This document shows positions 2,757-62,702 of a DNA stretch of 64,000 bases, piece by piece; positions within the stretch are counted from its first letter, which is position 1, and each line of letters starts with the position of its first letter. This DNA comes from Candidatus Moraniibacteriota bacterium (lineage in GTDB: Bacteria > Patescibacteriota > Minisyncoccia > Moranbacterales > UBA2206): assembly GCA_026396175.1 (NCBI GenBank), contig JAPLXG010000012.1, forward strand, positions 19,360 through 83,359, written 5' to 3'. Under the pieces are notes generated by a model. The model was not told where the DNA came from, made no database searches, and saw nothing but the letters and a program-made list of their open reading frames with translations. The position numbers and the translations under genes were made by a program.

Positions 2757-2884
2757 TAGAATAATAGGGCGTGAAAATTCCTCTGAAGTAGCTCCTCGTA
2801 AAACCCGATAAATCGGATCACGGGGCAGGCAATGGGCTTAATACGCCGAAGTAGCTCAATGGCAGAGCAACTGTTTTGCGCCAG

Positions 2885-3035
2885 CCCCGCACTAATTTAA
2901 AAAATAAATAAATCGCCGTCCTAGCTCAATGGCAGAGCAACTGTTTTGTAAACAGTAGGTTATCAGTTCAACTCTGATGGACGGCTCATGAGTCTAGAAG
3001 TAATTTACTGGTGCACTTTTTAAATTAGTGCGGGG
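2885..3035. repeat. Perfect 14-bp inverted repeat (CCCCGCACTAATTT at 2885-2898 / AAATTAGTGCGGGG at 3022-3035) bracketing the embedded tRNA-Thr
   Basis: Exact reverse complements read directly from sequence. Confidence 0.8.
2915..2986 (+). tRNA. tRNA-Thr (anticodon UGU), intact
   Basis: Acceptor GCCGTCC/GGACGGC, D-arm TAGCTCAATGGCAGAGCA, anticodon stem ACTGT/ACAGT with loop TTTGTAA, T-arm ATCAG-TTCAACT-CTGAT; no encoded CCA. Confidence 0.8.
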
Positions 3036-3053
3036 TAAATAGGTTATCGGTTC

Positions 3054-3073
3054 CCTGCCTGCCGGTAGGCAGG
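3054..3073. repeat. 20-nt palindrome family member (CCTGCCTGCCGGTAGGCAGG) inserted in the T-loop of the disrupted outer tRNA-Thr
   Basis: Removing it restores a canonical 7-nt T-loop TTCAACT. Confidence 0.7.
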
Positions 3074-3096
3074 AACTCCGATCTTCGGCTCAAAAT

Positions 3097-3124
3097 CATG
3101 TAGCATATAACATGTAGCATATAA
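3097..3124. repeat. Tandem 14-mer direct repeat CATGTAGCATATAA x2, followed at 3148-3176 by a CATGTT-rich tract
   Basis: Exact tandem duplication; a related CATGTTTCATG...TTACATG tract recurs inside priA at 14201-14233. Confidence 0.6.
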
Positions 3125-3197
3125 CAGGACTCCTTAATGATTTTGTTACATGTTTCATGTTGCATGTTACATGCAGTGGGTCGGTGGCGGAGTGGTC

Positions 3198-3217
3198 CCT
3201 GCCTACTGGCAGGCAGG
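3198..3217. repeat. 20-nt palindrome family member (variant CCTGCCTACTGGCAGGCAGG) in the D-loop of the outer tRNA-Tyr copy
   Basis: Flanked by GGTC and AATCGCAGC, which are contiguous in the intact tRNA-Tyr. Confidence 0.65.
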
Positions 3218-3264
3218 AATCGCAGCTGACTGTAAATCAGCCGATTTCGGTCTACGGGCGCGCG

Positions 3265-3430
3265 TCCCTCACCAATTTCGAACATTTTAAAATTATTTAG
3301 GGCAGACAGGGATATGGGTCGGTGGCGGAGTGGTCAATCGCAGCTGACTGTAAATCAGCCGATTTCGGTCTACGGGGGTTCGAATCCCTCCCGGCCCACA
3401 AGGCTGTCCTAGTTCGAAATTGGTGAGGGA
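3265..3430. repeat. Perfect 19-bp inverted repeat (TCCCTCACCAATTTCGAAC at 3265-3283 / GTTCGAAATTGGTGAGGGA at 3412-3430) bracketing the intact tRNA-Tyr
   Basis: Exact reverse complements; the same architecture as at the tRNA-Thr locus. Confidence 0.8.
3316..3398 (+). tRNA. tRNA-Tyr (anticodon GUA), type II with long variable arm, intact
   Basis: Acceptor GGGTCGG/CCGGCCC (one G-U), anticodon stem GCTGA/TCAGC with loop CTGTAAA, long variable arm, T-arm GGGGG-TTCGAAT-CCCTC. Confidence 0.8.
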
Positions 3431-3461
3431 TGAAAATCCTTCCCGGCCCACATAATTTTAC

Positions 3462-3534
3462 GCCGTTGTAGCTCAGTCGGTAGAGCATTTCCATGGTAAG
3501 GAAAAGGTCCGCAGTTCGATTCTGCGCAACGGCT
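3462..3534 (+). tRNA. tRNA-Thr (anticodon GGU), intact
   Basis: Acceptor GCCGTTG/CAACGGC, anticodon stem TTTCC/GGAAA with loop ATGGTAA, T-arm CGCAG-TTCGATT-CTGCG. Confidence 0.8.
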
Positions 3535-3540
3535 CAGGCT

Positions 3541-3587
3541 AAAGGTCCCCTGCCTGCCGGCAGGCAGGGATTCCGGACAACGGCTCA
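3541..3587 (+). pseudogene. Partial duplicate of the tRNA-Thr(GGU) 3' portion; the 20-nt palindrome (3549-3568, perfect) replaces the 5' strand of the T-stem
   Basis: AAAGGTCC[CCTGCCTGCCGGCAGGCAGG]GATTCCGGACAACGGCTCA against the tRNA's AAAGGTCCGCAGTTCGATTCTGCGCAACGGCTCA. Confidence 0.55.
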
Positions 3588-3593
3588 TTATAA

Positions 3594-3660
3594 TTAGTAG
3601 CCAGTATCTAATATTTTGTATTTAGTATTTATACTAAATACCAGATACTAAATACCACAT
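3594..3660. repeat. GTATTTAGTAT-type imperfect palindromic repeat tract just upstream of rpmG
   Basis: CCAGTATCTAATATTTTGTATTTAGTATTTATACTAAATACCAGATACTAAATACC with 9-bp arms TATTTAGTA/TACTAAATA; the same short repeat recurs at 15371-15400, 22419-22443 and 14081-14134. Confidence 0.5.
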
Positions 3661-3668
3661 ACAAATAA

Positions 3669-3897: not shown

Positions 3898-3968
3898 GCG
3901 GGTGTGGTGAAGTGGTATCACAACGGTCTCCAAAACCGTTATCCCAGGTCCGACTCCTGGCACCCGTG
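3898..3968 (+). tRNA. tRNA-Trp (anticodon CCA)
   Basis: Acceptor GCGGGTG/CACCCGT (G1-U72), D-stem GTGA/TCAC, anticodon stem ACGGT/ACCGT with loop CTCCAAA (as in E. coli tRNA-Trp), T-arm CCAGG-TCCGACT-CCTGG. Confidence 0.75.
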
Positions 3969-3980
3969 CATAGAAAAAAA

Positions 3981-4007
3981 CAAGACTCTCGAGTCTTGTT
4001 TTTGTTT
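3981..4007 (+). terminator. Rho-independent terminator after tRNA-Trp
   Basis: CAAGACTC-TCGA-GAGTCTTG hairpin followed by TTTTTGTTTG. Confidence 0.7.
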
Positions 4008-4046
4008 GCATTGGGATATATTTTTCAGTTTGACTTTAAAAAAATA

Positions 4047-4082
4047 GAAAAGGCATAGCGTGGGGGTTCGTTATGCCTTTTT
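4047..4082. terminator. Bidirectional hairpin terminator
   Basis: AAAAGGCATA...TATGCCTTTTT: 7-bp stem with an A-run on one side and a T-run on the other; lies between convergent transcription units. Confidence 0.5.
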
Positions 4083-4113
4083 GGATGCCCGGTTTTAGTT
4101 TAAACCGAGAACA

Positions 4114-4632
4114 TTAGAAAAGCTGTATTGGAGGCCGTGAAATTATATGCAGACCATTCTTGGCTATATATCCACGTAATGTTTGGCCGCAGTTTTGACA
4201 TTGATAGCCTAGTGTTGGGATTGGATCTCGAGGCGTTGCTTGGAACGCTTTTGCTATGATTACCGATTTACAGTGCCAGCAGTGGGTGGAATAATCTTTG
4301 TCGCTAAATTCCCATAAAATCCTTTCAAAGCTTTCGCGGGGGATTATTCTGCTGGCATTGGCCATGTAATAATAGACATGATGATTAACACATATAAACC
4401 ACATCATATCTTTTTGCCATTCGTAAGAATAGGCAAAGGCCACGGTGCGGCAAATCTGGCATGCAACTCCTGAATAAATAGCCAGTGGCATTGAGAGTAC
4501 CTCCTTTCCCGTAATAGGGAATGATAAAAATTGTCTATCATGTAAAAAATCGCGGCGTGCCAAAGAATGGCACAATAATCCGCGGAATTTCTTTGTAAAT
4601 GAACAAGCGTATGATAGCGTACTGTAGCGCAT
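4114..4632 (-). CDS. Hypothetical Cys/His-rich protein (possible zinc-binding or nuclease-like)
   Basis: 172-aa ORF with HCWHC and CQNCGQT motifs; no confident family assignment. Confidence 0.45.
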   Translation of the reverse strand: MRYSTLSYACSFTKKFRGLLCHSLARRDFLHDRQFLSFPITGKEVLSMPLAIYSGVACQICRTVAFAYSYEWQKDMMWFICVNHHVYYYMANASRIIPRESFERILWEFSDKDYSTHCWHCKSVIIAKAFQATPRDPIPTLGYQCQNCGQTLRGYIAKNGLHIISRPPIQLF

Positions 4633-4745: not shown

Positions 4746-4988
4746 ATGTACTATCTTTATATCCTAAAATGCGCGGATAAAACGCTCTATACGGGGATTG
4801 CCACCGATCTTTCGCGTCGGGTTTTTGAACATAATAACAATAAGCTTGGTGCGAAATATACCGCCGCGCGCCGTCCGGTTAGGTTGGTCTATTTTCAGAA
4901 ATTTAAAAACCGCTCTCTTGCTTCCAAAGAAGAAGCGCGGATAAAAAAGTTGAAAAAAGCAGAGAAGCTAGAATTGATTGGGGGATAG
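4746..4988 (+). CDS. GIY-YIG nuclease family protein (UPF0213-like)
   Basis: MYYLYILKCADKTLYTGIATDLSRRVFEHN = canonical GIY...YIG...R...E...N motif order. Confidence 0.85.
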   Translation: MYYLYILKCADKTLYTGIATDLSRRVFEHNNNKLGAKYTAARRPVRLVYFQKFKNRSLASKEEARIKKLKKAEKLELIGG

Positions 4989-5067
4989 CGACTTGTTTGA
5001 ATTTCGCTATGTTGCGTTTGAAAAAAGTGTGGTATACTGAAAAGGTAAAATAAATAACTAAAAATTC

Positions 5068-5194
5068 ATCCCCCACCACTTTTTTGCTCGCATTTCGTGC
5101 GAAAGTGAAGTAGCCCTAGAAGCTATCGTCGGGAGAATGCTAGGATATAATTTCTAGCCAAAATAAATTCAAAAGCAAAAAAGTGGTGGGGGAT
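5068..5194. repeat. 127-bp unit bounded by a perfect 20-bp inverted repeat (ATCCCCCACCACTTTTTTGC / GCAAAAAAGTGGTGGGGGAT), ending 8 nt before the ATG at 5203
   Basis: Exact reverse complements at 5068-5087 and 5175-5194; the internal 87 nt contains further small hairpins and a TATAAT at 5146-5151. Confidence 0.5.
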
Positions 5195-5202
5195 AAAAAA
5201 AT

Positions 5203-5520
5203 ATGGCACTGGCAAAAAAAACAAAAAAAGAGGGGAGTAGTTTTGACTGGCAAGAAACTTTGTCTGGGTTGGGAGTTAGTTTTTTCAAGAATTTTGCCGA
5301 TTCTTTGGCGGACAAAATTAAACATCGGATTCAAGAAATGGTGGTTGCGTTGCAAAAGGGTCTGCTTGGAACATTTTTGATTATAATTGGAACAATTTTC
5401 GCCCTAGTTAGTCTCGCTCTGTTTATCAATGAGATGCTTATGATCGGAACCGGCGTGGGCTATGCGATTGTGGGAATTTTTTCAATTCTAATGGGGTTAT
5501 TAATTATTAAGAGTAAATAA
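5203..5520 (+). CDS. Small hypothetical membrane protein (2 predicted TM helices)
   Basis: ORF with two hydrophobic segments in the C-terminal half. Confidence 0.5.
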   Translation: MALAKKTKKEGSSFDWQETLSGLGVSFFKNFADSLADKIKHRIQEMVVALQKGLLGTFLIIIGTIFALVSLALFINEMLMIGTGVGYAIVGIFSILMGLLIIKSK

Positions 5521-5775: not shown

Positions 5776-5807
5776 CCCCGCATCCCGCCAAGGCGGGATT
5801 TGCGGGG
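5776..5807. repeat. GC-rich nested hairpin motif, copy 1 (CCCCGCA-TCCCGCC-AAG-GCGGGA-TTTGCGGGG)
   Basis: Second copy with the same architecture at 16119-16150. Confidence 0.5.
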
Positions 5808-7729: not shown

Positions 7730-8020
7730 ATGAAACGGATCATTTTAATGCTAATCAGGCTCTATCAAAAGACCCTTTCGCTTGATCAAGGGCCACTTTC
7801 TTATCTGATTTCCGAGCGGATCTGCCGCTTTCATCCGACTTGCAGCCAGTATACTTACGAAGCCATTGAGCGTTTTGGGATATTGCGTGGAGGATTTTTG
7901 GGTCTCAGGAGAATTGTGCGCTGTCATCCATGGAACACTGGCGGGTATGATCCAGTGCCGAAGTTATTCGCTTCGCGAATCCCGCCTTGGCGGGAACATG
8001 CGAATAAAATTACAAAATAA
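7730..8020 (+). CDS. yidD: Membrane protein insertion efficiency factor YidD
   Basis: [10 protein letters not shown]...[18 protein letters not shown]...[14 protein letters not shown] family signature. Confidence 0.85.
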
Positions 8021-8049: not shown

Positions 8050-9009
8050 TTGTTTACTGATGAAGTGAAAATTAAAGTTTTTGCGGGGCGCGGAGGAGAC
8101 GGCGTCGTGGCTTTTAATAAGATTAAGATGAGCCTTGGGCCGACGGGTGGAAAAGGGGGAAACGGTGGCAGCGTCTATTTTGAAGGTGTTTCTAATTTAT
8201 CCGCACTGAATAAATACAAGCACAAAAAAGAATACTACGCCGAAAATGGACAGAACGGAAAGAAAGATAATTCCGAGGGACACCGCGGGAAAGATTTAGT
8301 CCTCACTGTGCCGATTGGTAGTGTTCTCTACGATCTTCAAAATAAGAAAGAATTGGAAATCATCAACGTTGGCCAGCGCGTAATGGTCGCGAGCGGAGGA
8401 ATCGGCGGGCGAGGAAATTTTTGCTTTCGTGGACCGGAAAATACCTCCCCCAAAGAAAGAGAATTAGGAAAGCCGGGCGAGGAGCGGGATTTTTTTGTCG
8501 AGCTGCGTTTTATTGCCGACGTAGGACTCATTGGTCTTCCCAGCGCGGGAAAATCCTCTCTCCTTAATGAATTGACTGCTTCCAAGGCCAAGGTAGGTAA
8601 TTATGATTTCACCACGCTGGAGCCAAATTTGGGCGTTATGGAGGATGTAATTTTGGCTGATATTCCCGGTCTCATTGAAGGCGCTTCGGAGGGCAGGGGA
8701 CTGGGAATGAAATTTTTGCGCCATATCCAAAGAACAAAAGTTTTAGTGCATTGCATCAGTTTAGAGTCGGAGAATTTCGAAAAAGATTACAAAATTATCA
8801 GAGAAGAGTTGAAGAAATATTCCGAAGATCTGGTTAAAAAAAGAGGAATAGTTTTGTTCACCAAGACAGACTTAACTCCAGAAAAACTGATTGAGAAAAA
8901 AATAAAAAAGATGCAGAAAATCAATCCGGAAGTGCTTAGTGTTTCAATTCATGATCAGGATAAATTAGAGGATCTAAAAAAATATCTACTAAAAGTGCTA
9001 GAAAATTAA
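8050..9009 (+). CDS. obg: GTPase Obg (TTG start)
   Basis: Obg-fold Gly-rich N-terminus (FTDEVKIKVFAGRGGDGVVAFN...GGKGGNGG), G1 motif GLIGLPSAGKSSLL, DIPGLIEGA. Confidence 0.9.
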   Translation: MFTDEVKIKVFAGRGGDGVVAFNKIKMSLGPTGGKGGNGGSVYFEGVSNLSALNKYKHKKEYYAENGQNGKKDNSEGHRGKDLVLTVPIGSVLYDLQNKKELEIINVGQRVMVASGGIGGRGNFCFRGPENTSPKERELGKPGEERDFFVELRFIADVGLIGLPSAGKSSLLNELTASKAKVGNYDFTTLEPNLGVMEDVILADIPGLIEGASEGRGLGMKFLRHIQRTKVLVHCISLESENFEKDYKIIREELKKYSEDLVKKRGIVLFTKTDLTPEKLIEKKIKKMQKINPEVLSVSIHDQDKLEDLKKYLLKVLEN

Positions 9010-12532: not shown

Positions 12533-14581
12533 CTAAATAATTGAAATTGGATCAATATCGATGACCCAGCCGGTTGGCAAAGATTTGAGAATAATTAGAA
12601 TTTCCTTAGGCAGTTGCTTTTGAAATTTCAAAAGCATTTGTCGGCGATATCTTCCTCGAATTTTTGGCACAAAAGAGTCGGTCGGTACACTTATTTTTAA
12701 ATCAGCCTTTTCTTTAATTAAAAGATTATACACCCTGTCTGATTCCACTGCAACCCTTTTTTGATTATAATCCTCAAAGACCAGTTTAGCAATTTTTCCA
12801 AAAGGAGGATAGCCTAAAAGTTTTCGATCAGGTAATTCTTGCTCATAGAAAGCCGGGTAATTATTTTGAGCAATCAGTGTGAGAATTTTATTTTCCGGGT
12901 GATAGGTTTGGATAATGATTCGGCCAGGAAATTTCGCGCCAGGGCGAGATACGCGACCAGATAATTGGACTAGGTCCTGCCAGGCCTTTTCACTGACCCG
13001 AAAATCCGGGAGCGTGAGCATATTGTCAGCATCAATCACTCCAACTAGACTCATCTTTGGTAAATCCCAGCCCTTAGTGATCATTTGCGTGCCGATGAGG
13101 ATGTCAATTTCTCCGCGAGAAAATTTTTCATAGGCTGTTTTTTGGAAATCTTTTTCTTTGTTTGCGGTTGAATCTAGGCGCAAAATTCTCGCTCCTGGAA
13201 AAAAATCGCGCACCTCTTTTTCCACTTTTTGCGTTCCCAGACCAACATTGCGAAATTCAATCCCATGGCATTTTGAGCAATTGGGAATAGCGCTGGCAAC
13301 AAAAGCACAATGCGGACATTTATATTCTCTTGAATTAGTATAGATAAGAGCGCGGTCACAGAGTGGACATTTGAGCACAGTTTTGCAATTAGTACAGACG
13401 GAAAAATTACTCATTCCCTGGCGATTAATGAATAAAATAGATTGCAAGTTATTTTTCAGCGCGTAGGCAATTTCACTTTTTAGTTTTTTGCTGATGCAAG
13501 AATAATTTCTCGCCCAGCGTTCTTTTTTCATATCAACCAGCTCAATTGTGCTGCGTACTTTTTGGGTGGTGACATTTTTTGGATGATAGGAATCGCTCAG
13601 AGTCAATAATTTATATTGCTTATATTGAGTTTTAAAATAAGTTTCAATGCTCGGCGTAGCTGATCCGTGGATAAGTTTGCATTTATACAATTCGGACAAT
13701 TTTTCAGCGACAGTTCGGGCGTCATAGCGTGGGTTCATATCCCATTGCTTGAATGACATATCTTGTTCTTCATCAATCACGATCAAAGCTAATTTTTGAA
13801 ATGGCGCGAAAACAGACATCCTGGTACCAATAATAATTTTTGCTTCGCCTGATTTTATCTTTTGCCAATTTGTGAAATAGACACCCTTAGAAAGATTGCT
13901 GCTGAGAAGGGCAATTTCATTTTCAGGAAAATAGGCGCCATATCTTTCCAGCGCTTGCGGAGTCAAAGTTTTTTCCGGCACTAAAATCAAAAATTGACTT
14001 TGGGGATTTTGCTTTTTGAGTTCCAAGATGGAGTGAATGTAGACTTCTGTTTTGCCCGAACCCGCCGGACCATGGAGGAGGTATCTGGTATTTTGCCTGC
14101 CTGCCGGCGAGGCAGGTATTTGGTATCTGATATCTTGCTTTGCAATATTTTTCACTGTAGCTTCTTGTTCAGCTGTTAGAATTATTGTATTTATATTTTT
14201 TGTTTCATGTTTCATATTATATGTTACATGATCAGCGCTTCGCGATTTCGTTCTCTTAGGCACAAAATTCTTCAAAACTACCCCGAGCGAGATGACGTAA
14301 TAATCTGAAATATATTTTGCAAGGGCTAATTGCTCCTTTGTGAGAAAATTTGGCTCCAAAACTTTTTCAATTTTTTTGAGCGTAATTCCGCCAACGCGGG
14401 GAAAATCATTTTTACTTTCAATCACGATTCCTTCTACGGTTTTTCTGAAAAGGGGAATGCTGACTAGCGTTCCGACGGGCAATTTTTCATCAGCGAGATA
14501 ATAGAAAAACTGGTCACGAGAAAGAAGAATCCTGACAAGAGGAGTGATACTGAGGATGAATTGAGTCTGTTTTTTGTTCAT
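12533..14581 (-). CDS. priA: Primosomal protein N' (PriA helicase) carrying in-frame repeat-derived insertions
   Basis: Walker A GPAGSGKT, DEEQD box, Cys4 zinc-binding region (CTNCKTVLKCPLCD...CPHCAF...CSKCHG). The linker before Walker A contains DHVTYNMKHET and RYQIPASPAGRQNTRY encoded by dispersed repeats. Confidence 0.9.
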   Translation of the reverse strand: MNKKQTQFILSITPLVRILLSRDQFFYYLADEKLPVGTLVSIPLFRKTVEGIVIESKNDFPRVGGITLKKIEKVLEPNFLTKEQLALAKYISDYYVISLGVVLKNFVPKRTKSRSADHVTYNMKHETKNINTIILTAEQEATVKNIAKQDIRYQIPASPAGRQNTRYLLHGPAGSGKTEVYIHSILELKKQNPQSQFLILVPEKTLTPQALERYGAYFPENEIALLSSNLSKGVYFTNWQKIKSGEAKIIIGTRMSVFAPFQKLALIVIDEEQDMSFKQWDMNPRYDARTVAEKLSELYKCKLIHGSATPSIETYFKTQYKQYKLLTLSDSYHPKNVTTQKVRSTIELVDMKKERWARNYSCISKKLKSEIAYALKNNLQSILFINRQGMSNFSVCTNCKTVLKCPLCDRALIYTNSREYKCPHCAFVASAIPNCSKCHGIEFRNVGLGTQKVEKEVRDFFPGARILRLDSTANKEKDFQKTAYEKFSRGEIDILIGTQMITKGWDLPKMSLVGVIDADNMLTLPDFRVSEKAWQDLVQLSGRVSRPGAKFPGRIIIQTYHPENKILTLIAQNNYPAFYEQELPDRKLLGYPPFGKIAKLVFEDYNQKRVAVESDRVYNLLIKEKADLKISVPTDSFVPKIRGRYRRQMLLKFQKQLPKEILIILKSLPTGWVIDIDPISII
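14081..14134. repeat. 20-nt-palindrome family copy (CCTGCCTGCCGGCGAGGCAGG, 14096-14116) flanked by GTATCTGGTATTT/GTATTTGGTATCT repeats, lying in-frame inside priA
   Basis: The reverse strand translates as DIRYQIPASPAGRQNTRYL immediately N-terminal to the Walker A motif. Confidence 0.7.
14201..14233. repeat. CATGTT repeat tract (TGTTTCATGTTTCATATTATATGTTACATGATC) in-frame inside priA
   Basis: Encodes DHVTYNMKHET on the priA strand; a related tract lies at 3148-3176 next to the tRNA cluster. Confidence 0.55.
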
Positions 14582-14828: not shown

Positions 14829-15371
14829 ATGAAACGAAAAATATATATTACTATCAATCTTGCCAGCCAAATCAGGCGCCGGCTCATAAAAAGCTGTGAG
14901 AAGTGGCGAGATTTGCCTGTGAAGTGGACTAAGGAGGAAAACTTGAACATCAGCCTGTTTTTTCTGGGCTATATCGACAATGACGTCGTGGCTGACGCTT
15001 GCCAAAAAGTGCGCGAAGCAGTCAGTGAAATTGAGCTTTTTGATCTGGAATTTGAAAAAATAATCCTTGCTCCAGACGTTGAAAATCCACAAGAATTTCG
15101 CGTAATCGGAAAATCAAGCGAAAAACTAAGAATCCTTTGCGAAGCGATTGAGAAAGAATTAGAAATTTTTGTCGCATCCAAAAAAGTTTTTTCTCCGCAT
15201 ATCACTTTGGGAAAAATCAGAAAAGAAAAGTGGGAAGAATTGAAAAACGTACCAGAAGTGAATGAAAAAGCTTCCTTCGCGGTCGGCGTCGAAGCGGTCG
15301 ACATTATGGCCAGCCACTTTGGTGAGGGGAAAAATAATTTTGTTTTGATTGAAAGTTGTCCGCTGAAATAG
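14829..15371 (+). CDS. 2H phosphoesterase family protein (LigT/ThpR-like RNA 2',3'-cyclic phosphodiesterase)
   Basis: HITLGK (H-x-T-x motif) and the overall size; the first motif is degenerate (NISLFFLG). Start moved to ATG 14829 to clear the tRNA. Confidence 0.55.
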   Translation: MKRKIYITINLASQIRRRLIKSCEKWRDLPVKWTKEENLNISLFFLGYIDNDVVADACQKVREAVSEIELFDLEFEKIILAPDVENPQEFRVIGKSSEKLRILCEAIEKELEIFVASKKVFSPHITLGKIRKEKWEELKNVPEVNEKASFAVGVEAVDIMASHFGEGKNNFVLIESCPLK

Positions 15372-15400
15372 TATGCGGTATTTAGTATTTGGTATCTTGT

Positions 15401-16126
15401 ATGAAAAAAGAGTGTAAAATTCTAGATGTGATGGTAGATAATCTTTCCAGAAAAGAAATACTTGAGAAAGTCGGGAATTTTTTGAGTGAAGATAAATTCC
15501 ATCAAATTGCAACTGTCAATCCGGAGTTTATCTTGGAAGCGCAAAATAATTCTGAGTTCAAAAATATTCTCAATAGTTGCGCGCTGAATGTGGCGGATGG
15601 TTTTGGTATCCGGTGTGCTTTTTGGCGTTATGGCTGGCACTTGAAAACCAGGATGGCCGGAGCAGATCTGATGCAAGAAATCCTAAAAATCGCTGAGCAA
15701 AAAAACCTGAAAATATTTTTGGCCATAAATAAAGATGGCCTGAGTAGTTTCGAAGAGATAAGTGCAGTTATCTTGAAAAAATATCCAGACCTGCGGATTG
15801 AAGGGATGAATTTGGACAAAAATACTATTCACTGTTCACTGCTCACTGATCCCTGCATCCTGTTTTGCAACTTTGGCGCTCCACACCAAGAAATCTTCCT
15901 TAATTCCCAAAAAGATGCTAAAATACGACTAGCAATGGGCGTGGGCGGATCCTTTGATTTTTTGACCAAAAAAATCAGACGCGCCCCGGTTTTTATGCGA
16001 AGAATCGGCCTCGAATGGCTTTGGCGAGTGGCTCAATCGCAGACCTGGGAGTTCAAGAAAAAACGGCTAAAAAGAATTTGGAAAGCAGTGGTAGTTTTTC
16101 CAATTAAAGTAATTTTAACCCCGTAA
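15401..16126 (+). CDS. WecB/TagA/CpsF family glycosyltransferase
   Basis: Family hallmarks ...NPEFILEA..., GADLM, C-terminal GLEWLWRV; start at ATG 15401. Confidence 0.8.
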   Translation: MKKECKILDVMVDNLSRKEILEKVGNFLSEDKFHQIATVNPEFILEAQNNSEFKNILNSCALNVADGFGIRCAFWRYGWHLKTRMAGADLMQEILKIAEQKNLKIFLAINKDGLSSFEEISAVILKKYPDLRIEGMNLDKNTIHCSLLTDPCILFCNFGAPHQEIFLNSQKDAKIRLAMGVGGSFDFLTKKIRRAPVFMRRIGLEWLWRVAQSQTWEFKKKRLKRIWKAVVVFPIKVILTP

Positions 16127-18777: not shown

Positions 18778-20082
18778 ATGCAAATAAAAAATTTCGTCTT
18801 GAGCAGAAAAAAAATAAAATTTGAAATTTTTGTAATAATATTTTTTATATTCTTTTTTTCGTATGAAAAGAGTGTCTTGGCAGATTCCAATGATTGCAGC
18901 GCACTTTCCGGAGATGCCCAGCAGCAATGCGAAGACCTGGAGAAAAAAGCCAGGATATATGAAGACCTGATAAAACTGAAAAACAAACAACAAGACGCCT
19001 TGGCGGGACAATTGGATAGTATCAATAGCGAACAAGCAAAAACTGTTGCACAACTCCAAGAGACCCAAAAACAAGTTCAAACATTGCAGCAGCAAATTGA
19101 TAATCTGGAAGAAAATATCAAAGATGGTGAGGCAGCGATGAATTTTCAAAAAAATATTCTAGCCGGATTGATGCAGTCCTATTATGAATATGATCAGCAG
19201 GGGATTTTGCCGGTTGTACTCACTAATGCGGCCTTTTCTGATATATTAAATCAATCTGATTATATCGAGCAATCCGGAGCCAAGGTTTCTGATGTTCTGG
19301 CAGAAGTCATTCGGACCAGGCAAAAATTAATCGATGACCAAAATACCTTAAAGCAAAAAAAGGAAGAGATTGATGGCGCTAAAAATGATTTGATTGACAA
19401 GAAAGAAAATCTGCAATCGACGGAAAATCAAAAAACCAATCTTCTAGTTCAAACTCAAGGTGAAGAAGTGAAATATAAACAACTGCTTGCTAATGCGGAG
19501 GCGCAAAGAGCCGAGCTGTTTGATTTTAGTGCGGCGAGCAACATTGATGATGTTAAACAAAGCGTGGGAGGTTATGCGAAGCCGTCATCAAATCTGGCAT
19601 CTACCAGTTGGTATTTTTCCCAACTTGATTCCCGTTGGGGCAAGATGAAAATTGGAAATTCAAATTCTCTAATGGAAGATTATGGTTGCGCCGTAACATC
19701 GCTGGCGATGGTTTTTCGCGAAAAAGGTGCCAGTACCGATCCGGGAAAAATGGCCAAACAAAAAATATTTTCTTTCGATCTGATCAAATGGCCCGGCTCA
19801 TGGAGTCCGGGAATAAGCTTGGTTTCCTCAATTTCGCACGGCAATATTAGTTGGTCCACAGTTGACGCGCAAATCAAAAAAGGCAATCCAGTGATTGTCT
19901 ATCTCAGTCGCAGTCGCGGCGGCGGTCACTATGTTGTGGTAACTGGAAAAGATAGTAAGGATTATATCGTTCATGATCCATACTTTGGAGCGAATCTATA
20001 TCTTAGTACCTCAAAATCACTTGTAGGAAAATTAGGTGCAAATAGTAGCGTCTCAGTTAATCAGATGATTATCTATAACTAA
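18778..20082 (+). CDS. Secreted coiled-coil protein with C-terminal C39-like (papain-fold) peptidase domain; PcsB-like putative cell-wall hydrolase
   Basis: Signal/TM N-terminus, roughly 200-aa Gln/Lys/Glu-rich coiled coil, then YGCAVTSLAMV...GGGHYVVVTG...VHDP (Cys/His/Asp order of C39-like peptidases). Confidence 0.55.
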   Translation: MQIKNFVLSRKKIKFEIFVIIFFIFFFSYEKSVLADSNDCSALSGDAQQQCEDLEKKARIYEDLIKLKNKQQDALAGQLDSINSEQAKTVAQLQETQKQVQTLQQQIDNLEENIKDGEAAMNFQKNILAGLMQSYYEYDQQGILPVVLTNAAFSDILNQSDYIEQSGAKVSDVLAEVIRTRQKLIDDQNTLKQKKEEIDGAKNDLIDKKENLQSTENQKTNLLVQTQGEEVKYKQLLANAEAQRAELFDFSAASNIDDVKQSVGGYAKPSSNLASTSWYFSQLDSRWGKMKIGNSNSLMEDYGCAVTSLAMVFREKGASTDPGKMAKQKIFSFDLIKWPGSWSPGISLVSSISHGNISWSTVDAQIKKGNPVIVYLSRSRGGGHYVVVTGKDSKDYIVHDPYFGANLYLSTSKSLVGKLGANSSVSVNQMIIYN

Positions 20083-21750: not shown

Positions 21751-23004
21751 CTATTTTTTCTTTGAATAGTATTCTTTCAAAAGCTCTCCCGAAACTTTAC
21801 GCAATTTTTCGAGAACCTTCTTTAGCTTTGCCACGAAAATAACCAATTCTTTTTTAGTTGTATATTTTCCCAGCGTAACGCGCAGTGACCCGTGGGCTTG
21901 TTCTGGTTTTAGCCCAAGTGCCAGCAGGACGTGCGATGGACTGAGTGAGCCAGAAGAGCAGGCGGAGCCAGTGGAAACAGCGATGCCTTCAGCGTCGAGG
22001 TAAAGCAGAAGACTCTCCCCTTCCACATCAGAAAAACTAAAGTTGGCATTGTTGGGCGATCTTTTTGAACGTGAGCCATTCAGGCGAACGCTAGGAATTT
22101 CTTTTAATACTTTTTTAATCAAATAATCTCGCAGTTCTTTGATTTTTTTAATCTCTTTTTGCTTGTTTTTTTCCAAGACTTCGATGGCTTTACCTAGTCC
22201 GATAATGCCAGTTGAGTTGAGTGTGCCGGCGCGCAGAGCAAATTCTTGCGCCCCACCATCTTGGATTTGAGTGATTTTTGTGCCCTTTTTGACCAGTAGC
22301 ATTCCCACACCTTTTGGCCCATAGATCTTATGCGATGACATAGAAAGCAAATCAACACCCAATCTTTTGACGTTTATGTCAAAATAGGCTACGGCTTGTG
22401 TTGCGTCAGTGTGGAATAGTATCTGGTATTTAGTATCTAGTAACTTGGAATTATGCTTTTTTATGACTTTTCCGATCTGAGCAATTGGCTGTACTGTTCC
22501 AATTTCATTATTAACATACATAACTGTTACGAGAAGCGTGTTTTCCTTGATTGCTTTTTCTAGGTCAGATACCTTAATAATTCCATCAGAATAAACCGGG
22601 AGGTAGGTCACTTCAGCGCTCCCCTCTTTTTCTAGTTTCTGGCAAGTCTTGAGCACGCAACTATGTTCAAAAACAGTTGTGATGATATGTGGTTTTTTCC
22701 CACTATTTTTTTTATTCTTATTGTACGCACGAAGTACGCCTTTGATGGCGAGATTATTTGATTCGGTTGCGCCACTGGTGAAAATAATTTCTTCCGAGGT
22801 GCATTTGAAAAAACAGGCCGCACTTTCTCTCGCCGCGGTAACTGCATCGGCCGCGTTTCGTCCAAAAGAGTGAAGAGATGAGGCATTGCCAAACTCCGAA
22901 CTAAAATATGGCAACATTGTTTTTAGCACTTCAGCGTCAACTGGCGTTGTCGCCGCATAATCTAGATATATTTTTCCGCCTCGGGCGGAATTATTCATTT
23001 CCAT
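21751..23004 (-). CDS. iscS: Cysteine desulfurase IscS/NifS (class V aminotransferase) with a short in-frame repeat-derived insertion
   Basis: PLP-lysine motif SSHKIYGPKG, C-terminal active-site loop SACSS. LLDTKYQI before the FHTDATQ motif is encoded by a GTATCTGGTATTTAGTATCTAG repeat. Confidence 0.9.
   Translation of the reverse strand: MEMNNSARGGKIYLDYAATTPVDAEVLKTMLPYFSSEFGNASSLHSFGRNAADAVTAARESAACFFKCTSEEIIFTSGATESNNLAIKGVLRAYNKNKKNSGKKPHIITTVFEHSCVLKTCQKLEKEGSAEVTYLPVYSDGIIKVSDLEKAIKENTLLVTVMYVNNEIGTVQPIAQIGKVIKKHNSKLLDTKYQILFHTDATQAVAYFDINVKRLGVDLLSMSSHKIYGPKGVGMLLVKKGTKITQIQDGGAQEFALRAGTLNSTGIIGLGKAIEVLEKNKQKEIKKIKELRDYLIKKVLKEIPSVRLNGSRSKRSPNNANFSFSDVEGESLLLYLDAEGIAVSTGSACSSGSLSPSHVLLALGLKPEQAHGSLRVTLGKYTTKKELVIFVAKLKKVLEKLRKVSGELLKEYYSKKK
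22419..22443. repeat. GTATCTGGTATTTAGTATCTAG short repeat in-frame inside iscS
   Basis: Same repeat family as 14081-14134, 15371-15400 and 3594-3660. Confidence 0.5.
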
Positions 23005-31909: not shown

Positions 31910-32110
31910 AAATATAAATAATAATTAGTTAGCTTGAATTATGCTTTGCGCGTTTTCTATTCACGCCACCATGCTCTTTTGAAAAAATTTGAAATTTGAA
32001 ATTCTAAATTTTAATTCAAATCTAAATTACTAAATTTTTAATCATCAATTAGTTATTTGAACATTTAATCATTTGGCCTTGATTTCAAATTTTAAATTTA
32101 GAATTTAAAA

Positions 32111-32518
32111 TTACTTGATGCACGTCTTATCCGCCACTCTCCCCTGCTTCAGTGCATCATCGAGACTGGAAAAACAGACGAGATTTGCTGGTTTGATCCG
32201 TTTGGCGAACGAGCAGGTTGGCAAATGCACTTTGTTTGAATTTTTACTCCCGACATAGTTGCAATTAGGGGCTAAATTCTTCGTTTCTGCGGGGTTTTGG
32301 GTGATTTCCGGGGTAGCTGCACCTGCCACAGCTTGGGCGTTTTCTGAGTCAATTTTGGCCATTTCAGTCGTTTTTTCAATCACAATTGCCTTTGTTTGGC
32401 CTTTTTTTCCTTCGACATAGCCGAATTGGAAGGAAATGAGCGCCACTAAGACAAATCCGGTCACCAGCACCAGTTTCATTTCATGTTCGATTAGAAAACT
32501 TTTGATCTTACCCATCAA
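32111..32518 (-). CDS. Hypothetical membrane-anchored protein with C-terminal Cys-containing domain
   Basis: ORF with N-terminal TM helix; C-terminal CNYVG...HLPTCSFAKR...VCF. Confidence 0.4.
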   Translation of the reverse strand: MMGKIKSFLIEHEMKLVLVTGFVLVALISFQFGYVEGKKGQTKAIVIEKTTEMAKIDSENAQAVAGAATPEITQNPAETKNLAPNCNYVGSKNSNKVHLPTCSFAKRIKPANLVCFSSLDDALKQGRVADKTCIK

Positions 32519-35859: not shown

Positions 35860-35895
35860 GGGGACTAAGTCCCGAAGCTTCGGGACTTAGTCCCC
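35860..35895. repeat. 36-nt perfect palindrome GGGGACTAAGTCCCGAAGC|TTCGGGACTTAGTCCCC (18-bp stem, no loop)
   Basis: Exact self-complement between the rplI start and the ctpA stop. Confidence 0.7.
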
Positions 35896-45360: not shown

Positions 45361-45394
45361 TAATTCGCCTGCCTGCCGGCAGGCAGGTAATTCG
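45361..45394. mobile_element. 20-nt perfect palindrome CCTGCCTGCCGGCAGGCAGG (45368-45387) flanked by a perfect 7-bp direct repeat TAATTCG (target-site duplication)
   Basis: TAATTCG|CCTGCCTGCCGGCAGGCAGG|TAATTCG read directly. Confidence 0.7.
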
Positions 45395-45405
45395 TAGAGA
45401 AACAC

Positions 45406-46389
45406 ATGAAACTGATTGTCAACATTCCCGCTTACAACGAAGAAGCGAAAATTGGAGAAACAATTGAACGTATCAAAAAAAGCTTTTCAGCCGATTTTTA
45501 TACACAGGGCGAAGGATCGAAGATTTCTGAGAAATTGATTCAGATGGTGGATGACGGATCAAGCGATAATACGGTCGAAGTTGCCCAGAAAGCCGGACTA
45601 GACCTGCTCGTCTCCTATAAACCCAATCGCCGCCTGGCTTATTCTTTCAAGCGGGCCGTAGAAAATGCGCTGGAAAATGGTGCGGATATTATGGTCAATA
45701 TTGATGCGGATGGCCAATTTAACCCGCTGGATATTCCTAAATTAATTACTCCGATCCTCGCTGGCCAATGTGATATGGTGATTGCTAATCGCTTCGGCAA
45801 GCATGAAGCCAAGGATATGCCAAAAATCAAATACCACCTTAACCGTTTTGCCGCCAAAATGATTGGCTTTTTTCTCAACTACCCCATTGATGATTTGACT
45901 TGCGGATTTCGCGCACATAACCGCGAAACACTCCTGCGCCTCAATATTACTAATGTCAGCTTCACCTACACCCAAGAAACAATCATTGATGCAATTGGAA
46001 AAAATTTGAAACTAAAATGGGTGCCGGTTAATGTTCAGTATTTCGCTGATCGCGAAAGCCGAATTGTGAAATCAGTTTGGAAATTCGTAGGAAACTCAGC
46101 TAAAATAATCCTAAAAGCAGTGCGTGATGTCCGTCCAATGAAATTTTTTGGCGTTCCCGGGCTCACCCTGGTCACTGCATCTCTTTTGGTTTTTTGTGCT
46201 TTTCTTTTTCAATATTTTCAAACTTTCCAAATCACCACTTACCGCAACTACCTTTTCCTTTCCGCCGCACTGCTCTTTGTTGGCTCGCAACTCCTCATTT
46301 TTGCCCTTATTGCCGATATGATCAAAACTAATCGCAACCTCACTGAAGAGCAAATGTATCTCTTGAAAAAAGACCGGCTTAAAAAATAG
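45406..46389 (+). CDS. Glycosyltransferase family 2 (polyprenol-phosphate sugar transferase-like, C-terminal TM helices)
   Basis: VNIPAYNEE...DDGSSDNT...DADGQ GT-A motifs and C-terminal membrane anchor. Confidence 0.8.
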   Translation: MKLIVNIPAYNEEAKIGETIERIKKSFSADFYTQGEGSKISEKLIQMVDDGSSDNTVEVAQKAGLDLLVSYKPNRRLAYSFKRAVENALENGADIMVNIDADGQFNPLDIPKLITPILAGQCDMVIANRFGKHEAKDMPKIKYHLNRFAAKMIGFFLNYPIDDLTCGFRAHNRETLLRLNITNVSFTYTQETIIDAIGKNLKLKWVPVNVQYFADRESRIVKSVWKFVGNSAKIILKAVRDVRPMKFFGVPGLTLVTASLLVFCAFLFQYFQTFQITTYRNYLFLSAALLFVGSQLLIFALIADMIKTNRNLTEEQMYLLKKDRLKK

Positions 46390-50061: not shown

Positions 50062-50279
50062 GGGACTTACGCATTTAAATTAATTTGTCATCCTGAGCAA
50101 ATCCGCCAACTGGCGGAGAAGTCGAAGGATCTATTTTCCATTATCGTAAGCCCTGCTATTAAGTAGAAAACTCTGGGTTACGGTTAGCAGATCCTTCGAC
50201 TGCGTCCTGAGTACAGGACTTCGCTCAGGATGACAGGGCTTGGTTGTTTTTGAGCAAACGCATAAGGTCATAGCATAGC
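50062..50279. repeat. Highly structured 218-bp intergenic element with nested 12-bp inverted repeats; termini resemble the MITE family (diverged variant)
   Basis: GTCATCCTGAGC/GCTCAGGATGAC and GTCGAAGGATCT/AGATCCTTCGAC inverted repeats, central GTCCTGAGTACAGGAC hairpin; ends GGACTTACGCATTT ... AAACGCATAAGGTC. Confidence 0.4.
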
Positions 50280-62658: not shown

Positions 62659-62702
62659 AACCAGAGCTCAGCTCTCGGATTTCCGAGAGCTGAGCTCTGG
62701 TT
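62659..62702. terminator. Strong 21-bp-stem hairpin (possible terminator or regulatory structure)
   Basis: AACCAGAGCTCAGCTCTCGGA-TT-TCCGAGAGCTGAGCTCTGGTT; only a weak T-run (TTTTCACC) on the + strand. Confidence 0.4.

Follow-up and report, generated by a model that had tools for sequence, protein, structure and literature searches.

Several described systems bear on short palindromic DNA that is dispersed through genomes. The small dispersed repeats (SDRs) reported by Elhai et al. in 2008 are said to be 21-27 nt long, partly palindromic and dispersed, with insertions recognised by comparing orthologous sites; they reportedly occur inside tandem heptameric repeats and other repeats and in one cyanobacterial group only, and we know of no mobilising enzyme for them. 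The GC clusters of yeast mitochondria are GC-rich palindromes that have inserted into the genes and structural RNAs of an AT-richer genome. Paquin, Laforest and Lang (1994, 2000) are said to have described double-hairpin elements in Allomyces mitochondria, together with an atp6 insertion consisting of a GIY-YIG open reading frame (ORF) and a partial gene copy. Free-standing GIY-YIG homing endonucleases include SegB of phage T4, which is encoded in the phage tRNA gene cluster, and I-TevI. The repetitive extragenic palindromic (REP) sequences and REP doublets forming hairpins (REPINs) of, e.g., Pseudomonas are short scattered hairpin repeats, and the single-copy gene for the REP-associated tyrosine transposase (RAYT) is flanked by the repeat (PMC3116915); the same paper also cites the SDRs of heterocyst-forming cyanobacteria. 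The subject of the present analysis is a perfect 20-bp palindrome, CCTGCCTGCCGGCAGGCAGG, found in Candidatus Moraniibacteriota bacterium (assembly GCA_026396175.1, contig JAPLXG010000012.1). The analysed stretch of 64,000 nt (positions 19,360 to 83,359 of the contig, forward strand) is referred to as the window. The palindrome belongs among the very small mobile palindromic repeats, and we are highly confident that it is a mobile or selfish repeat; a family of small GIY-YIG nucleases is considered below as its candidate partner.

Five copies are present in the window, two of them exact and three variant:

3054-3073, no strand assigned: variant CCTGCCTGCCGGTAGGCAGG, with one mismatch and a GCCGGT centre, in the T-loop of the ancestral tRNA-Thr(UGU) 3' orphan
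3198-3217, no strand assigned: variant CCTGCCTACTGGCAGGCAGG, with two mismatches, in the D-loop of the tRNA-Tyr 5' orphan
3549-3568, no strand assigned: exact palindrome, in the T-arm of the tRNA-Thr(GGU) 3' orphan fragment
14096-14116, no strand assigned: copy of 21 nt, with one additional base, in frame within priA
45368-45387, no strand assigned: exact palindrome, intergenic, 18 nt 5' of the ATG of a GT2 glycosyltransferase gene (45406-46389)
45361-45394, no strand assigned: direct repeat of 7 bp, TAATTCG, bracketing the 45368 palindrome (arms 45361-45367 and 45388-45394)

A sequence-only reading of the window had counted at least six copies; a search that allowed up to four edits found no sixth copy in the window, and the coordinates given for the five are all correct. 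The same reading held that a 20-mer recurring this often in a genome of about 40% GC was far above chance, and this was borne out, as the window has a GC content of ~40% and dinucleotide-preserving shuffles of it gave 0 matches at up to three mismatches, compared with the five real copies. The shuffles and the genome scan together rule out a chance origin. Two findings had been named in advance that would speak against a repeat of this kind, a frequency no higher than in shuffles and copies confined to duplicated segments, and neither was found: the flanks of the five copies are mutually unrelated, with no homologous duplicated segments. The five window copies are independent insertions. As single-stranded DNA the 20-mer is predicted by folding to form an 8-bp stem with a CCGG loop (~-8 kcal/mol). 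An Rfam scan of the window recognised only five tRNA genes and no family matching the palindrome.

The exact 20-mer was found in at least 120 stretches of species-representative genomes (one genome per species was scanned), from more than 10 phyla. Viral contigs carry it as well, in 35 stretches. Cultured organisms among the listed matches include the Bacteroidota Winogradskyella, Flagellimonas, Longitalea, Flavivirga, Aquiflexum, Aestuariivivens, and Agriterribacter. The other listed matches come from many classes of the candidate phyla radiation (CPR), from Omnitrophota, Planctomycetota, Verrucomicrobia, Elusimicrobia, Bdellovibrionales, and Thermodesulfovibrionales, from 'delta' and 'gamma' proteobacterial metagenome-assembled genomes (MAGs), and from one Chloroflexi MAG; no cyanobacterial label occurs among the at least 120 genomic matches listed. 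The listed host genomes mostly have 31-50% GC, a range in which, by our own estimate, far fewer than one chance match is expected in the whole collection, and the few matches in genomes of 65-72% GC could be due to chance. The flanks of 125 genomic copies are unrelated directly outside the 20-mer, and nearly all copies are single. The 20-mer is therefore the whole unit, and a larger element hidden in the flanks was ruled out. Half-sites were also considered as the ends of a longer transposon, and the lone 10-mers proved to be decayed copies. In a few high-GC viral contigs the palindrome is embedded within longer repeats.

Among relatives of the window, 23 copies at up to three edits were found in 80 loci (528 kb). 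The asymmetric variant CCTGCCTACCGGCAGGCAGG recurs at several independent loci in the window's clade, and its opposite strand reads GCCGGTAGG, as at 3054. Variants thus propagate as subfamilies, which argues for templated copying and not for de novo synthesis. Compensatory change was considered as a sign of selection on the hairpin and was rejected, since the two common 'variants' are one asymmetric variant on opposite strands and a single copy was truly compensated. A separate observation concerns locus L160 (comparison loci are given L numbers and PriA relatives P numbers), in which at least 10 tandem 21-nt units, CCATGCCTACCGGCAGGCAGG, each with an A8 palindrome variant, occupy 3925-4142 and extend to the terminus of a viral contig of high GC, for which a telomere-like array, an expansion, and an assembly edge are all conceivable.

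Three of the five window copies (3054, 3198, and 3549) lie in a cluster of broken tRNA genes, the parts of which are as follows:

2845-3092, plus strand: disrupted ancestral tRNA-Thr(UGU) with a GCCGAAG-type acceptor (5' part 2845-2878, 3' part 3037-3092)
3178-3452, plus strand: disrupted outer tRNA-Tyr (5' part 3178-3258, 3' part ~3433-3452)
3541-3587, plus strand: tRNA-Thr(GGU) 3' orphan (variable region, T-arm, and 3' strand of the acceptor), directly 3' of the intact gene at 3462-3535

The sequence-only reading had placed copies in a T-loop, in a D-loop, and in frame in priA, and these placements are correct; it had assigned no setting to the copy at 3549. What it had taken for loops of tRNAs are indeed such loops, but their carriers are dead orphan fragments adjoining intact replacement tRNAs and not working tRNAs. 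The ancestral tRNA-Thr(UGU) is cut at the anticodon by a 158-nt insert (2879-3036), which holds a different, working tRNA-Thr(UGU) at 2915-2987 between 19-bp inverted repeats (2885-2903 and 3017-3035), and the boundaries of this insert are identical in L220 and L223. Similarly, the outer tRNA-Tyr encloses a working tRNA-Tyr (3316-3399) between inverted repeats at 3266-3283 and 3412-3429, a nest that is also found in L163, L235, and L185/L186. The close relatives L162 and L164, with ~90% identity in the neighbouring PSP1 protein, have a compact, unbroken cluster of tRNA-Thr(UGU), tRNA-Tyr, and tRNA-Thr(GGU).

Precise empty sites were identified in close relatives for three of the five copies, namely the tRNA-Thr T-loop, the tRNA-Tyr D-loop, and priA, and no target-site duplication (TSD) is present at any of these three sites with exact empty alleles. 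The 3054 copy sits precisely at GGTTC^AACTCC of the T-loop, with no duplication of the target, and the site is empty in the intact orthologous tRNA of L162 and L164. The 3198 copy sits precisely at GGTC^AATC of the outer tRNA-Tyr D-loop; the site is empty (GGAGTGGTC^AATCGC) in the window's own inner tRNA-Tyr and in L162, L164, and L185, and is filled in L163 and L235 by the asymmetric variant CCTGCCTACCGGCAGGCAGG. The third tRNA copy is not a clean insertion, since the T-arm at the 3549 site is short of 7 nt relative to the ancestral arm (GGTCTCCGGTCCGATTCCGGAC, intact in L162 and L234); an orthologue of this copy is present in L163. Three sister lineages have one orphan in common. In L163 it has no palindrome, and in L234 and L225 it is filled at two differing positions; these are repeated independent strikes on a target of ~10 nt after the orphan had formed.

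The priA copy lies in the ORF at 12533-14581 (minus strand), where its coding strand, CCT GCC TCG CCG GCA GGC AGG, is read as PASPAGR, immediately ahead of the Walker A motif. L125 (P0002) shares this 21-nt insert, and L126 (P0003) and L123 (P0004) have the precise empty site, ATA^C(T/A)A. Because this copy has an extra base, the reading frame is kept. The palindrome is hosted here by a repeat tract:

14074-14135, minus strand: heptad tract AGATACC/AAATACC inside priA, hosting the palindrome and missing from other relatives

With filled and empty alleles at three of the five window copies, and with unrelated flanks in at least 120 genomes, the proposal of a small selfish palindromic element at independent sites holds. 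Where it strikes a single-copy tRNA gene, the insertion persists only in an orphan fragment with an intact replacement next to it, as in the Thr-Tyr-Thr cluster of the window; in protein genes it persists only with the frame restored, as in the 21-nt priA copy.

Some further features of these loci were recorded in their own right. The 'Russian-doll' nests, in which an intact tRNA-Thr(UGU) or tRNA-Tyr lies inside a broken copy of the same tRNA between 18-19-bp inverted repeats, occur at 2845-3092 and 3178-3452 of the window and in L163, L235, L185/L186, L220, and L223. In the distant L185 (62% PSP1 identity) the outer 5' part of the tRNA-Tyr nest equals the inner gene, and yet the sequence differs from that of the window tRNA; a short stem beside the inner tRNA covaries as well (TAGGGCAG/CTGTCCTA, TAGGGTAG/CTACCCTA, and TAGAGCAG/CTGCTCTA). 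From the sequences compared, the nested pattern seems to point to concerted evolution, repeated origin, or a functional RNA structure. In many relatives (L165 6890-7498; L166, L167, L169-L172, and others) an ORF of ~200 aa with an N-terminal helix-turn-helix lies between tRNA-Thr and tRNA-Tyr; it has no confident Pfam match and weak matches to TnsD and UPF0122, and the tRNA cluster may thus harbour a further gene of selfish or homing type. In several of the PriA relatives P0005-P0013 a different GC-rich in-frame insert, PSFAKATAGKQ, is found at a second site, before residue ~125 of the window protein; in P0010 it is the first site that holds this insert. The palindrome AGCTTTGCCAAAGCT is part of the insert's DNA (L121 10001-12028), and several palindrome families therefore colonise the PriA linker. 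Short tandem repeats of period 7 or 14 are strikingly common in the window (3097-3126, 3144-3173, 3603-3667, 15369-15403, 15824-15856, 22417-22442, 31985-32011, and 32082-32112, and within priA at 14074-14135 and 14180-14235), and in PriA relatives heptad DNA repeats are translated into 7-aa periodic peptides, e.g. KFQISNF and NTRYQI. These repeats may be linked with the palindrome through its 7-nt flanking repeats.

Insertion sites were compared across the exact copies. In the flanks of 125 copies the only preferences are weak ones, for A at positions -1 and -3 and for T at +1, and no tetranucleotide is conserved. A tRNA gene lies within 400 nt of 15 of the 125 genomic copies, and the junctions within tRNA fall at positions 12-25 (D-arm), 32, 45/46 (variable loop), and 56 (T-loop). 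The usual layout is a 5' tRNA fragment, beginning at +1 and carrying the palindrome in its D-loop, followed by a short spacer and an intact gene for the same tRNA (L030, L083, L037, L004, and L001). Deletion of the palindrome in silico restored a tRNA in one of 125 cases, and the carriers are therefore fragments and not full genes. Insertions into hairpin loops are in excess (with a minimum stem of 6 bp, 19 of 167 copies where 7.9 were expected; with one of 7 bp, nine where 2.9 were expected), the insertion point is frequently the loop-stem junction, and the palindrome is also nested in the centre of other palindrome copies (L018 and L042). Among 71 loci not selected for the palindrome, GC-rich hairpins are 21-fold denser in orphan tRNA fragments than in background DNA (5.9 vs 0.28 per kb); this palindrome occurs in three of 19 orphans generally. 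Within tRNA genes the enriched sites are the D-, T-, variable, and anticodon loops, mostly at a loop-stem junction, and structure-prone DNA and tRNA arms are probably the preferred target. Two viral contigs, L151 (2239-2330) and L128 (~8570-8660), carry the palindrome in the variable loop (45/46) of tRNA-Met. The L151 gene is otherwise complete and still called by ARAGORN, with the hairpin mimicking a long extra arm, and is possibly a tolerated insertion in a working tRNA.

Direct repeats of 7 nt (at least six of seven positions matching) flank 16 of 167 exact copies against 0.5 expected, with no excess at 4-6 nt, and arrays of period 7-8 lie close to seven of 165 copies vs four of 812 controls. 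Insertion anywhere in a perfect heptad array gives 7-nt repeats automatically, so that these data fit a TSD and a preference for heptads equally. At 45368, where a TSD had been proposed, TAATTCG does lie on both sides, and a duplication of the target is one of these two accounts of it.

A candidate partner gene emerged from a profile search seeded with the sole GIY-YIG gene of the window:

4746-4988, plus strand: 80-aa GIY-YIG-only ORF of a YhbQ-like subfamily, with 40-47% identity to the palindrome-associated subfamily

The search revealed GIY-YIG-only ORFs of ~80 aa directly beside the palindrome in L037, L106, L118, L077, and L158, in a cassette in which a 5' orphan tRNA half with the palindrome is followed by the ORF and then by the intact tRNA. 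A database search with the L037 protein gave 135 relatives in CPR and Bacteroidota, and Pfam PF01541 was assigned to all listed homologues. This palindrome-associated subfamily shares the motif KREKYLKSG, and its range (CPR and Bacteroidota) overlaps that of the palindrome. Residues of the GIY-YIG active site (Y5, Y15, R25, H29, E61, and others) are invariant in 30 members; among PDB entries the closest in sequence are proteins of UPF0213, with a weaker match to the structure-specific endonuclease Slx1, and no DNA-binding domain is recognisable in the ~80-aa protein. In about ten called proteins an N-terminal extension includes the translated palindrome (LPAGRQ/CLPAGR), which lies a few codons upstream of the actual Met. 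Eight members without such an extension were then sampled for long contigs or named taxa, before their flanks were known. In six of the eight (Dokdonia, Shapirobacteria, Colwellbacteria, Croceiramulus getboli CP123444, Wolfebacteria, and L249) the orphan tRNA runs for 22 nt up to the exact 20-mer, which lies at position 22/23 and 18-27 nt upstream of the ATG, and a seventh, L243, has a palindrome variant in the T-arm of a 3' orphan. The cassettes occupy genes for tRNA-Arg, Asn, Leu, Lys, Gly, and Gln, and the tRNA clusters of the window's relatives occur with or without such ORFs. In viral contigs the family is almost absent, being represented by a single truncated, uninformative locus.

Two observations on the wider family stand apart from this. 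The window's GIY-YIG protein is YhbQ/UPF0213-like, with 76-90% identity across many CPR lineages and 1,651 matches, a conservation that is unusually strong for a presumed selfish nuclease and suggests a host function. In L093 (~5040-5300, reverse strand), a Saccharibacteria MAG, an ORF of the same broad GIY-YIG family apparently lies inside the 23S rRNA gene, which fits the insertion sequences already reported in CPR rRNA genes.

Taken together, these results allow a joint reading, on which we are evenly divided, in which the palindrome is a non-coding hairpin micro-element moved by the KREKYLKSG GIY-YIG nuclease. The earlier suggestion that the palindrome is a recognition site for a dedicated nuclease or transposase encoded elsewhere fits the evidence, with this family as a candidate; no gene of IS200/IS605 type was seen. 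The 20-bp palindrome would be the complete mobile unit, copied into new sites and passing between lineages, and the driver would be the ~80-residue nuclease, consisting of the catalytic domain only and resembling Slx1 and UPF0213. Its genes are themselves inserted in tRNA genes and are tightly linked to the 20-mer, which in its exact form nearly always occupies position 22/23 of the orphan half, shortly upstream of the ORF. Considered by itself, the GIY-YIG protein is a tentative candidate, proposed from sequence, for the mobilising or recognising enzyme. Its lack of a DNA-binding domain and its kinship to Slx1 suggest an action on extruded DNA hairpins, which it would nick at their loop-stem junctions. 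Repair would then install either the ORF cassette, with the tRNA regenerated and the old half orphaned, or a copy of the hairpin alone. Hits in single-copy tRNA genes would be lethal and would hence be seen only in orphans. Solitary palindromes would stand to the GIY-YIG gene as REPs stand to the RAYT gene, and the partner gene of this genome would be located outside the 64-kb window. It is doubtful, in our estimation, that the nuclease-hairpin pair amounts to a previously unrecognised class of bacterial mobile element; such a class would choose its targets by DNA structure (loop-stem junctions, chiefly those of tRNA-gene arms) and not by sequence, and would be spread over more than 10 phyla and phages, a combination that is likewise somewhat unlikely to hold in full. 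Neither the 20-mer itself nor its pairing with a GIY-YIG gene was found in the searchable full-text literature, the coverage of which is incomplete, so that an earlier description is possible; the nearest matches were the fungal-mitochondrial analogues and a paper on Patescibacteria tRNA introns without palindromes.

Several results weigh against the joint reading. The gene-palindrome co-occurrence is seen at the level of loci and not of whole genomes, and the eight sampled members are few and were chosen by hand, with long contigs or named taxa preferred. When 3,313 ORFs of 120 loci with 8-kb surroundings were clustered all against all, no family was present in more than seven loci, and so no gene that is always near the palindrome. 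A gene or remnant of the associated subfamily was sought in the window and none was found there, and the window's own GIY-YIG gene was rejected as the partner, as its subfamily is another, highly conserved one that shows neither read-through of the palindrome nor association with it. To our knowledge, GIY-YIG enzymes hydrolyse DNA and are not known as transposases. The 7-nt flanking repeats at ~10% of sites are unexplained by nicking and repair. At this D-loop position the eighth sampled member, L250, bears another palindrome, 38 nt long, and other GIY-YIG subfamilies of the same architecture are accompanied by other GC-rich palindromes (L221 in tRNA-Tyr and L199 in tRNA-Trp). From L250, L221, and L199 it follows that the specificity is not strict, and orphan D-loops could simply be the safest hot target.

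That last point leads to the best-surviving rival, which we consider possible, on the unlikely side: the palindrome would be an autonomous-looking 'nano' repeat in the style of the cyanobacterial SDRs, copied by a host process or some other enzyme (e.g. template switching at hairpins in replication or repair, or an HUH-type single-stranded-DNA transposase), and the GIY-YIG genes would be unrelated neighbours whose orphan tRNA halves are the only harmless sites of a strongly preferred target. Much of what speaks against the nuclease speaks for this alternative. About 90% of exact copies are distant from any tRNA or GIY-YIG gene; in L234 and L225, compared with L163, insertion at two positions followed orphan formation with no ORF close by; the same loops are occupied by other GC-rich palindromes in L221, L199, L250, L220, and L223; the 21-fold enrichment applies to GC-rich hairpins in orphans generally; and the association with 7-nt repeats parallels what is said of SDRs in heptameric tandem repeats. 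Against it, the exact 20-mer is found in six of eight KREKYLKSG cassettes, always at position 22/23, compared with three of 19 orphans, and its identity over more than 10 phyla requires that some partner or vector be sequence-specific. No HUH- or RAYT-like gene was seen in ~250 loci, although no explicit search for one was made.

Movement by the nuclease can also be replaced by loss. If the palindrome were the terminal sequence of the cassette, solitary copies would be scars left when recombination between palindromes deletes the ORF, in the manner of solo long terminal repeats. Palindromes that bracket the ORF or stand in tandem (L245/L246 and L247) and the orphan-bearing tRNA nests of the window, in which no ORF remains, are what such deletions would leave. 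We nevertheless judge this improbable, as priA holds a clean 21-nt insertion relative to the empty alleles, with neither a duplicated target nor an ORF remnant, the cassette palindrome lies inside the orphan (tRNA positions 23-37 follow it) and not at the cassette end, and most solitary copies are in non-tRNA DNA where no cassette is seen.

An element of REP/RAYT type, or one derived from IS200/IS605, that a Y1 HUH transposase mobilises in single-stranded form would share with the palindrome a hairpin-forming unit (~-8 kcal/mol as single-stranded DNA), known empty sites without target duplication, and a preference for structures prone to be single-stranded. It is very unlikely here, since the hairpin has no GTAG or other conserved tetranucleotide beside it and no inverted doublets, REPs are species-specific and the 20-mer is identical across phyla, no such transposase occurs among the ORF families near copies (120 loci), and 20 bp is, judging from IS608, too short for the guide and cleavage sequences of IS200/IS605 ends.

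Least probable of all is a host-selected functional hairpin (a terminator, RNA stabiliser, or operator or other protein-binding site) or a sequencing or assembly artefact: the palindrome does lie 16-37 nt before cassette start codons and 18 nt before the ATG at 45406, and two orthologous copies are still perfect in the window and L163 despite diverged flanks, but it sits in coding sequence and in tRNA loops, destroying function, is followed by no T-run, matches no Rfam family, and is polymorphic (filled or empty) among close relatives, so that the tRNA-loop and priA insertions largely refute a function, and cultured isolates, independent assemblies, and mutated orthologous copies rule out an artefact.

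Other palindromes were noted alongside the 20-mer. A second cross-phylum family, (T)CCGCCAGCTGGCGG(A), was present in seven of the 120 unrelated loci fetched for the first palindrome; its loci are L011, L015, L016, L032, L040, L108, L110, and L027, with a window copy, TCCGCCAACTGGCGGA, at 50102-50117 in the loop of another repeat-like hairpin (gtcatcctgagcaa^gaagtcgaaggatc). The window also contains a perfect 36-nt palindrome, GGGGACTAAGTCCCGAAGCTTCGGGACTTAGTCCCC, at 35860-35895, a 21+21-nt inverted repeat at 62659-62702, and three TCCCGCC..GGCGGGA hairpins (5782-5799, 7980-7995, and 22974-22990). These other GC-rich palindromes could be terminators or further micro-elements.

If the nuclease and the hairpin do form such a new class, tRNA genes are continually destroyed and replaced by it in bacteria with small genomes, and the hairpin alone is the smallest mobile DNA known with an identified partner enzyme. 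The element accounts both for the nested broken tRNA copies in the clusters of reduced genomes and for odd GC-rich peptides in essential proteins such as PriA. Identity of the 20 bp in CPR, Bacteroidota isolates, Planctomycetota, Omnitrophota, and phages, with unrelated flanks, indicates a very wide horizontal spread of minimal selfish DNA. How repeats of less than 30 nt move has been an open question since the cyanobacterial SDRs, and there is now a concrete candidate enzyme that can be purified and tested, with cultured hosts available (Dokdonia, Croceiramulus, and Winogradskyella). A structure-specific mini-nuclease with a defined 20-bp partner site could be of technical interest. For annotation the palindrome is a hazard, affecting both tRNA annotation and gene calling, as ORFs are extended through it and acquire LPAGRQ or CLPAGR N-termini.

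In relation to known systems, the likeness to Rickettsia palindromic elements (RPEs), Correia elements, and REPs that had been drawn from the sequence is useful as an analogy only, the defining features of those families being absent. RPEs are likewise selfish palindromic repeats found in frame in proteins and also in structured RNA genes, but they are 100-150 bp long and specific to Rickettsia. Correia elements differ in being miniature inverted-repeat transposable elements (MITEs) of ~100-155 bp with terminal inverted repeats and a TA duplication. MITEs in general are derived from insertion sequences and range from 50 to 500 bp; here the unit is 20 bp, the flanks are unrelated, no segment is enclosed by terminal inverted repeats, and in place of a TSD of fixed length there is none at the three empty-allele sites and a 7-nt repeat at 16 of 167 copies only.

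REP/RAYT is the known system closest in logic, with a gene and scattered hairpins. The candidate partner here is a GIY-YIG hydrolase and not a Y1 HUH transposase; the palindrome is perfect and without a GTAG head or inverted doublets, and its copies are not confined to extragenic space or to one species. Where the RAYT gene is flanked by its repeat, no ORF family is common to the 120 copies studied, and the only nuclease family adjoining the palindrome, at the level of loci and not of whole genomes, is GIY-YIG. The cassettes resemble free-standing GIY-YIG homing endonucleases in that the ORF has inserted into a conserved gene or beside one, is polymorphic for presence and absence, and leaves the target gene regenerated. 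In addition, a diverged version has taken the place of the tRNA sequence alongside, as would fit co-conversion. They differ in that the proteins are ~80 aa and comprise the catalytic domain only, their cleavage being putative, and in that the intact target tRNA persists beside the ORF and a conserved palindrome accompanies it.

The SDRs are the known system closest in kind. Like them, the palindrome is shorter than 30 nt (20-21 nt) and is present or absent at orthologous sites (priA and the tRNA cluster), and a minority of copies lie inside heptad tracts (priA), 7-nt repeats, or other palindromes. Unlike SDRs, to which it is likened by description only, the 20-mer is identical over more than 10 phyla and viral contigs, inserts into the loops of tRNA genes, and has a GIY-YIG gene family associated with it. 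In architecture the closest known system is the Allomyces atp6 insertion, in which a GIY-YIG ORF brings a replacement gene piece, the old piece is orphaned, and hairpin elements lie at the junction, as in the tRNA cassettes. The Allomyces elements and the yeast GC clusters are organellar, lineage-specific, longer (30-50+ nt), and heterogeneous, whereas the element considered here is bacterial, is targeted to tRNA genes, and consists of one exact 20-mer across phyla.

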